Of a stretch of 605 nt of DNA, positions 23-605 are shown one piece after another. Within the stretch, counting starts at the first letter, position 1, and every line of letters begins with the position of its first letter. The notes under the pieces are model-generated. The model was not told the origin of the DNA, did no database searches, and was given only the letters and a program-made list of their open reading frames with translations. The position numbers and the translations under genes are program-made. The DNA is from a phage, in the sequence record KM389308.1, one strand, 5' to 3'.

Positions 23-286
23 ATGCGCATCAGCAACATCGAATGGCTGAAGAAACGGATCGAGTTCATCAGGAAGCTCGGAAAACAGACCGCACGACAG
101 AGACAGATCATTGACCTGCTCGACAACGAGGACAGACTCACAGAACAGGAACGCAAACTTCTCCACGTACTGGCAACAGCCGAAAAAAACGACTTACAGG
201 CACAGGAGAGCGAACGAAAACAGGCGATCCAGAAACGAATCGAGGGGAAGAAACAACGACGGGAACGCAATCACCGGCTCTTCTAG
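23..286 (+). CDS. Hypothetical small basic, predicted all-helical protein (87 aa from first ATG). May instead be the C-terminal part of a longer protein starting upstream of the window, for example the last gene of a mob/accessory operon reading toward oriV.
   Basis: Uninterrupted frame from ATG at 23 to TAG at 284-286; the same frame has no stop back to nt 2. AGGGAG at 7-12 lies 10 nt upstream of the ATG. The coding strand is purine-rich and T-poor. The product is rich in K/R/E/Q with amphipathic-helix periodicity (e.g. IEWLKKRIEFIRKL) and a very basic C-terminus (KRIEGKKQRRERNHRLF). No similarity to the Rop sequence (MTKQEKTALNMARFIRSQ...) that I can see. Function is not assignable from sequence alone. 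Confidence 0.6.
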   Translation: MRISNIEWLKKRIEFIRKLGKQTARQRQIIDLLDNEDRLTEQERKLLHVLATAEKNDLQAQESERKQAIQKRIEGKKQRRERNHRLF

Positions 287-412: not shown

Positions 413-605
413 ACGCGTAAGTGTTCCCGTTCACGTTCCGGTGCCCTGGTGCTTCCTCGCTCATTCGCTCGCTACGCTCGGTCATGAGACTGCGGCGAGC
501 ACTACCACCTCAATCATGCGGTAAGCCGCACCATTGCTGGGCTGAGAGGAGAAAACCGCCGGAAAGCCCGCTGCTCAAAAAGACGCCGAAAGGCGCTGTT
601 ATCTG
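413..605. other. ColE1/pMB1-family plasmid replicon segment: region immediately downstream of oriV, truncated by the window edge (oriV, RNA II and RNA I expected beyond nt 605, RNA II on the minus strand)
   Basis: By-eye alignment to the recalled pBR322/pUC top strand (cttcctcgctcactgactcgctgcgctcggtcgttcggctgcggcgagcggtatcagctcactcaaaggcggtaatacgg...). Window 451-463 gcttcctcgctca matches 13/13; the next 20 nt match about 16/20; ctgcggcgagc is identical; tgcggtaa and the ggaaag...caaaag...aaagg pattern are retained. Further left, gcgtaag (415-421) also matches. Orientation is the pBR322 top strand, i.e. antisense to RNA II, so a fork from oriV would enter from the right. Confidence 0.75.
451..540. 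other. Putative primosome assembly site (PriA/factor Y n-prime-type pas) homolog, with stem-loops at 476-500 and 511-536
   Basis: Stem gctcg (476-480) pairs with cgagc (496-500) around a 15-nt loop. The recalled pBR322 homolog has cgctcg / 15-nt loop / cgagcg at the same place, so the stem is conserved while the loop sequence differs. A second imperfect hairpin is caat-ca-tgcgg-taag-ccgca-cc-attg (511-536). Assignment as pas rests on my recollection that the pBR322 L-strand factor Y site maps about 150 bp downstream of oriV. Confidence 0.4.

Follow-up and report, generated by a model that had tools for sequence, protein, structure and literature searches.

Does the pBR322-like segment near the end of the 605-nucleotide stretch of DNA analyzed here (the window) mark a pMB1-type replicon without its DnaA box, or does it belong to a replicon of another kind? 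The question arises from a sequence-only reading, which treated the segment as a pMB1 homologue, noted that the DnaA box found at the corresponding position of pBR322 appeared to be absent, and suggested that the replicon may rely on the PriA/primosome assembly site (pas) route alone or carry the box elsewhere. We propose, with a probability of about 0.82, that the window is the mobC-pas-origin edge of a small mobilizable ColE2-type (Col156, MOBQ4) plasmid, in which helicase loading proceeds via PriA and the pas and which has no DnaA box. The features on which this reading is built are collected in Table 1.

Table 1. Features of the window, in order of position
Feature	Position	Strand	Remark
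mobC-like accessory mobilization ORF of MOBQ4 plasmids	23..286	plus	87 aa, truncated
Core hairpin of a phiX174-type (n') primosome assembly site (ssi), homologous to pBR322/ColE1 ssiA	449..502	minus (putative)	
Segment read as a conserved pas extension, ColE2-like plasmids only	503..543		Region flagged in the sequence-only reading; no DnaA box
Variable spacer, pas to origin	544..582		Low conservation in the A2 and A5 alignments
Terminator-like hairpin, GCGCC-TTTC-GGCGT then CTTTTT	583..596	minus	Consensus scan; rep adjoins the window on the minus strand
Initial ~15 bp of a ColE2-type origin, truncated at the window end	591..605	minus	Minus strand reads CAGATAACAGCGCCT

The earlier claim that no DnaA-box-like 9-mer exists in the window was confirmed, since neither strand matched the consensus TTATNCACA with fewer than 2 mismatches. 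At 2 mismatches we counted four matches, against 3.1 ± 1.7 in shuffled sequences, and 82 of 200 shuffles contained at least four. By our own arithmetic, 605 nt should contain by chance ~0.02 perfect and ~0.5 one-mismatch DnaA boxes; the absence of the box is thus without statistical weight alone and is informative only by contrast with pMB1. As a pMB1 reference we used a vector-derived record (L003), found with a pBR322 origin sequence that it matched at 100% over 344 nt. This record carries the pBR322-type box, as had been stated, in the form of GGTTATCCACAG at positions 485-496, and the window sequences that had been quoted were likewise correct (gccgcaccattgctgg at 525-540 and ttatctg at 599-605). 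Permissive blastn reproduced the alignment register of the sequence-only reading (window 440-594 with L003 395-548, 66% identity) and placed the pMB1 box opposite window 530-539 (ACCATTGCTG), with 2 of 9 bases matching; MAFFT instead treated the box as an insertion relative to the window. Similarity was concentrated in window 441-500, which reached a local score of 34 with pMB1 (shuffles, 7.8 ± 1.5; 0 of 500 reached the score). Beyond this core it was weak (score 13 versus 8.5 ± 1.4, with 7 of 500 shuffles as good).

We then considered the replicon from which the window comes. The window showed 99.7% identity to the E. coli plasmid pLH85-a-D and ~95% to pIGJC156, both of which are typed Col156 and MOBQ (MOBQ4 for pIGJC156), and 597 plasmid records matched it, mostly small mobilizable plasmids. 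A replication initiation protein gene is annotated in pIGJC156 on the opposite strand, 7 nt past the end of the match. Rotation of pLH85-a-D to window position 1 revealed that the window end is followed, on the minus strand, by a 339-aa ORF, which was missing from the ORF list of this plasmid only because the start of the record splits it. The encoded Rep contains the Pfam domain Replicase (PF03090, 2.7e-43), PriCT_1, and a C-terminal HTH domain, matches PDB 3VW4, the crystallized ColE2-P9 Rep domain, at 6e-42, and is 76% identical over residues 1-266 to ColE2-P9 Rep, for which the full-length Rep of pLC1477_18-2 was used. The latter protein is 100% identical to 3VW4, and its plasmid carries the same pas-origin module as the window, with an identical pas core and 84% identity over window 415-605. 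The order mobA (minus), mobC (plus), pBR322-like segment, rep (minus) recurred in every relative fetched, namely, pIGJC156, ColE9-J, a 5.1-kb S. sonnei plasmid, pB1172, pLC1477_18-2, and pRM10042-3. MOBQ42 plasmids have been described as carrying ColE2-like initiators, being typed Col156, and having a 32-bp origin downstream of rep, with a small mobC that adjoins oriT and diverges from mobA, in the order mobA/oriT/mobC (PMC6856555). The ColE2-P9/ColE3-CA38 family (class C theta; Col156; MOBQ42, for example, ColE9-J and pIGJC156) has the same order mobA/oriT/mobC/pas/origin/rep, its Rep proteins likewise contain Replicase, PriCT_1, and HTH domains, and the origin core TATCAGATAACAGCGCC directly follows the rep stop.

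A ColE1-type replicon is rep-less and makes an RNA II preprimer and an antisense RNA I. Rfam gave no match to ColE1 RNAI in the window at E up to 1, nor in the complete pLH85-a-D sequence at the gathering threshold, the positive control on the pMB1 sequence scoring 73.7 bits, and a rep gene is present. Because RNAI is absent here and present in the pMB1 control, and because a ColE2-type rep adjoins the segment in the relatives, the replicon is, as judged from sequence, of the ColE2 type (class C theta) and not of the pMB1/ColE1 type (class B theta). This assignment draws on near-identical full-length plasmids, because the 605-nt window stops short of rep and of two thirds of the origin.

The remaining third of the origin forms the end of the window. 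ColE2-type origins contain CAGATAA direct repeats and the site at which Rep makes an AGA primer (PMC3632715; PMC5304414). An origin of this kind, ~32 bp in length, lies downstream of rep and carries a CAGATAA repeat as well as the AGA primer site. The 7 bases with which the window ends, ttatctg, form the exact reverse complement of CAGATAA; on the minus strand, the R direct repeat occupies 605->599 and the primer sequence AGA occupies 604->602. Read on that strand, the window end (605->592) is CAGATAACAGCGCC, a core that does not vary among 14 family members, one of which is pLC1477_18-2, the plasmid with the ColE2-P9 Rep. Alignments of 8 and then 14 pas-origin modules showed no variation in GCGCTGTTATCTGATA (reverse complement, TATCAGATAACAGCGC), and all 14 ColE2-like plasmids carry GCGCTGTTATCTG(ATA) unchanged immediately after the rep stop. 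In the window's lineage, the R repeat alone is intact, the position of the L repeat being degenerate (TGAACAA). ColE2-P9 Rep synthesizes ppApGpA, and replication is unidirectional and dependent on DNA polymerase I (Pol I), according to the biochemical literature on ColE2-P9; according to a review, DNA synthesis in vitro needs no more than the ColE2 origin, Rep, Pol I, and SSB (PMC4980987). In the origin studied here, AGA occurs on the minus strand only, and therefore the leading strand should start there and run toward lower window coordinates.

The lineage of the window differs from ColE2-P9 in the C-terminal DNA-binding (HTH) region of Rep and in the Rep-proximal half of the origin, which reads GAACAAGCCTATA in the window's lineage versus CCAGATAAGCCTTA. 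This half, including the position of the L repeat, lies at ~606-632 of the rotated pLH85-a-D (columns 197-230 of alignment A2). Such divergence is the known mode of difference between specificity types within the family and would be expected if the Rep-origin specificity were peculiar to this lineage. The terminator-like hairpin is probably the terminator of the rep transcript, to judge from its sequence, and overlaps the edge of the origin; its T-run on the minus strand corresponds to the 3' part of the variable spacer (578-582, aaaaa). The spacer retains weak residual similarity to the pMB1 stretch GGGGATAACGCAGGAAAG.

The earlier suggestion that a DnaA box lies elsewhere in the replicon was not borne out. 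No perfect box was present in the whole of pLH85-a-D or ColE9-J, and one-mismatch matches occurred at chance level with none near the origin; pLH85-a-D had 7 where 4.9 ± 2.4 would be expected, each at a distance of over 1 kb from the origin. Nor did ttatctg at the window end continue into a box. The sequence runs on as ttatctgatatagg / ttatctgatataggcttgttcatg, which is the CAGATAA origin repeat and not TTATNCACA, and ttatctgat is 4 mismatches away from TTATNCACA by our own count. A TTATNCACA with at most 1 mismatch was absent from all 14 ColE2-like pas-origin modules, including that of the plasmid with the ColE2-P9 Rep.

The pBR322-like segment itself corresponds to a primosome assembly site. 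Window 440-499 was 80% identical to pMB1, and homology to the experimentally defined site, pBR322 ssiA, extends over window 441-500. Positions 451-500 were invariant in 8 ColE2-like plasmids (A2); among 14 modules (A5), only 462-464 varied within this interval, in one short contig (L020). A search with window 415-605 returned at least 5,000 matching plasmid records. Among the matches listed, ~595 covered most of 415-605 and were ColE2-like plasmids, and the others spanned only ~436-524, usually 441-505 or 451-500, and included ColE1-type and large conjugative plasmids. The element was located ~350 nt upstream of repE in an IncFIA plasmid (L013 3001-3065) and adjoined the rep gene in an IncR plasmid (L014 3001-3065). 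The pas-like elements of F (IncFIA repE) and IncR, at a distance of a few hundred bases from rep, share the hairpin core, in which compensatory changes occur, but they differ from the window in that the origins are iteron type and DnaA dependent, homology does not extend past about window 505, and the inner part of the hairpin has another sequence.

Twelve copies from 4 replicon types could be folded into a common hairpin, in which window 449-460 pairs with 492-502 and inner stems form in between. The consensus hairpin has 14 pairs, with 99.4% of the cells paired and compensatory double changes in 5 of the 14 pairs, compared to 14 to 51% paired in slid controls; the structure was derived from the same 12-sequence alignment on which pairing was scored. 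This conserved hairpin fits a structured single-strand element at 449-502. Folding of 436-545 as single-sequence DNA gave z values of -2.0 for the minus strand and -1.5 for the plus strand, and -0.06 for the pMB1 equivalent, values too weak to establish structure or to point to a strand. Base-pair covariation was symmetrical between the strands, and the G-T wobble evidence for the minus strand was slight. We infer from the geometry only that the functional strand is the minus strand, which would be the displaced strand and lagging-strand template. At the n' pas of pBR322 (ssiA), which is exposed by Pol I extension, PriA loads DnaB and DnaG (PMC3167613, PMC3640518, PMC5778457); by analogy, the pas described here may likewise depend on PriA.

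Several observations accompany this result. The same pas hairpin stands beside four unrelated origin types (ColE1, ColE2, IncFIA, and IncR), and compensatory changes separate the lineages; the hairpin behaves as a portable module. Nomura and colleagues reportedly described, in 1991, a ColE2 ssi of the phiX174 type with homology to its ColE1 counterpart. A coding explanation for 421-605, as a 61-aa ORF in pLH85-a-D or a 74-aa hypothetical CDS in pLC1477, was rejected because ~50 nt do not vary at any codon position and because other replicons have the same core in a noncoding setting. The small ORFs across the pas and origin (pLC1477_18-2, L007 1513-1737; L001 217-402) are almost certainly spurious, since the region is conserved as a noncoding structure in other replicons.

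These elements suggest the following course of replication. The plasmid Rep primase would bind the ~32-bp origin that starts at the last 15 bases of the window and would make the ppApGpA primer at AGA, at 604->602 of the minus strand. Pol I would extend the primer, presumably toward lower window coordinates, and the growing D-loop would displace the parental minus strand and, after ~100 to 150 nt, expose the hairpin at 449-502, probably together with an adjacent hairpin at 511-536. On the exposed structure, PriA, PriB, DnaT, and DnaC would load DnaB and DnaG for lagging-strand synthesis.

Comparison with pBR322 and its relatives shows what is shared and what is not. The ssiA of pBR322/ColE1 has a homologous hairpin core in the same orientation, with presumably the same primosome-loading role after formation of the Pol I D-loop. 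The pas lies ~100 to 150 nt downstream of the leading-strand start here versus ~135 to 185 nt in pMB1, and in both, the displaced strand has the polarity of the nascent leading strand. In contrast, the origins are unrelated, pBR322 using an RNA II/RNase H primer and the replicon studied here a Rep primase. The resemblance of the window to pBR322 comes from the hairpin module, which pBR322 has at the same distance and in the same orientation beside an unrelated origin. Between pas and origin, pMB1-like plasmids have TTATCCACA and an inverted partner, GGGGATAAC; the window lacks both and has the conserved hairpin 511-536 instead. Both elements are kept in 4 of the 5 ColE1-type plasmids aligned, the exception being the p15A-like pEc45_3. 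The RNA/DNA switch (GCGTTTTTCCATAGGCTCCGCC) was found ~140 to 190 nt from the pas in all five ColE1-type sequences (A3), and the window has GCGCTGTTATCTG there. The ColE1 origin region also contains a 70-bp DnaA-reactivating sequence (DARS) with three DnaA boxes (PMC5835720), and this element is absent from the window. The DnaA box near the ColE1 pas is a potential DnaA-dependent site for DnaB-DnaC assembly (PMC3640518). Origins of the p15A-like ColE1 type (pEc45_3) resemble the window in having the pas core and no DnaA box from pas to origin, but they differ in being still RNA II primed, with the GTTTTTCCATAGGCTCCGCC switch region. Hence, in part of the ColE1 lineage the DnaA box has been inserted, as an accessory, between pas and origin, and it does not belong to the conserved module. 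Since the box is such an accessory, outside the shared module, it is not expected here, and its absence is real yet expected in a ColE2-type replicon. What stood of the sequence-only reading is that no DnaA-assisted route is evident and that the PriA/pas route is plausible; its premise of a pMB1 homologue did not stand, as the replicon is of the ColE2 type and a Rep primase gene adjoins the window.

Two other readings of the replicon and of DnaA deserve consideration. That the source of the window is an RNA II-primed replicon of the pMB1/ColE1 type, with its DnaA box lost or located elsewhere, is suggested by the 80% identity of the pas core, by the weak similarity that goes on to about window 594, and by the existence of true ColE1-type plasmids without a box, such as the p15A-like pEc45_3. 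However, we regard this as scarcely credible, given the absence of RNAI from both the window and pLH85-a-D and the ColE2-type rep and origin that abut the window in every relative examined. Moreover, the window ends in the CAGATAA origin repeat and not in an GCGTTTTTCCATAGG RNA/DNA switch region, and the occurrence of the same pas core beside unrelated IncFIA and IncR replicons means that sharing it implies no common replicon type. The participation of DnaA via degenerate low-affinity sites of the kind found at oriC, with 2 or more mismatches and situated in or near the pas-origin spacer, is very improbable. Two of the four 2-mismatch matches do lie just beyond the pas, at 371-379 and 391-399, and the imperfect inverted box of pMB1, GGGGATAAC, falls opposite window 548-556 (GGAGAAAAC) in the alignment. 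Nevertheless, such matches occur in the window at chance frequency and are lacking altogether in 9 of the 14 pas-origin modules, GGAGAAAAC is 4 mismatches from the consensus by our own count, conservation within the module is lowest in the spacer at 545-590, and Rep, Pol I, and SSB suffice in vitro, according to the review cited above (PMC4980987).

The segment at 503-543 requires separate discussion. It is nearly invariant in the 14 ColE2-like modules, 545-590 being variable, and contains an inverted repeat (511-514/533-536 and 517-521/526-530), of which 511-536 folds as a hairpin on either strand. In this hairpin, ~93% of the cells were paired, covariation was indistinguishable from shuffles on both strands, and four single changes stay G-T pairs on the minus strand, which is a hint only. 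A pattern scan of genome contigs for the pas core plus the origin core added little diversity, as it yielded only 6 loci, all close relatives. We read 503-543 as a ColE2-lineage extension of the ssi. That the segment lies outside the pas and acts as a cis element of its own in ColE2-type plasmids, for instance, as a lagging-strand or fork stop or as a site for Rep or a host protein, is unlikely, although conceivable. Consistent with a separate element, the segment is kept in all 14 ColE2-like modules and is absent from the ColE1-type, IncFIA, and IncR copies of the pas, in which homology ends at ~505-524, and an inverted repeat without significant covariation could reflect recognition of the duplex rather than folding. 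On the other hand, the segment directly abuts the pas core, its hairpin is stable on either strand, and several substitutions in 511-536 keep pairing as G-T on the minus strand. Furthermore, work by Marians and Arai is reported to show that phiX174-type sites usually need more than one hairpin, and this counts against a separate element. The stretch at 503-543 could, as a speculative suggestion to which we attach low confidence, be a lineage-specific second helicase-loading determinant or a site that fixes the start or stop of the lagging strand.

At the other end of the window, the mobC-like ORF is shortened. One T of a TTT run is missing at 281-283 compared to pLH85-a-D, pIGJC156, and pB1172 (alignment A7), and the ORF of these relatives reads on to ~420 to give 132 aa, as seen in pLH85-a-D and annotated in pIGJC156 and pB1172. 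The shortened ORF loses the C-terminal motif AAGLxIxAGLVDxKTG, which is common to a 148-aa homologue, annotated as "TraD," on an S. sonnei plasmid. It is by this frameshift that the mobC-like gene of the window differs from the ColE2-P9/ColE3-CA38 family, and the missing T is either a real pseudogene mutation or a homopolymer sequencing error. The mobC-like protein had no Pfam or NCBIfam match. The mobC of ColE9-J (L004 6729-7004) encodes 91 aa visibly unrelated in sequence to the window ORF, and pLC1477 and pRM10042-3 have, by annotation, a 91-aa mobC of the ColE9-J kind. The pas-origin module is conserved despite this unrelated flanking mobC, and mob and rep modules appear to be shuffled at or near the pas. 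Near-identical enterobacterial ColE2-like modules were also encountered in assemblies labeled Acinetobacter, Moraxella, or Lachnospiraceae/Bacteroidetes metagenome-assembled genomes (MAGs) (L015, L016, L018, L019, and L020), where they probably represent contamination or misbinning of small high-copy-number plasmids.

Earlier work, from ~1989 to 2006, has already described replicons of the ColE2 type together with their Rep primase, small origin, and nearby phiX174-type ssi, and the biological importance of our finding is small. If 503-543 is indeed a second helicase-loading determinant, this segment would do for ColE2-type plasmids what the DnaA box and ABC primosome back-up does in pBR322. 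The lesson is a practical one, for annotation: because the module occurs beside ColE1-type, ColE2-type, IncFIA, and IncR origins, a pBR322-like stretch of ~60 nt should not be taken as a sign of a ColE1-like replicon or as a basis for predicting ColE1 accessories, the DnaA box among them.
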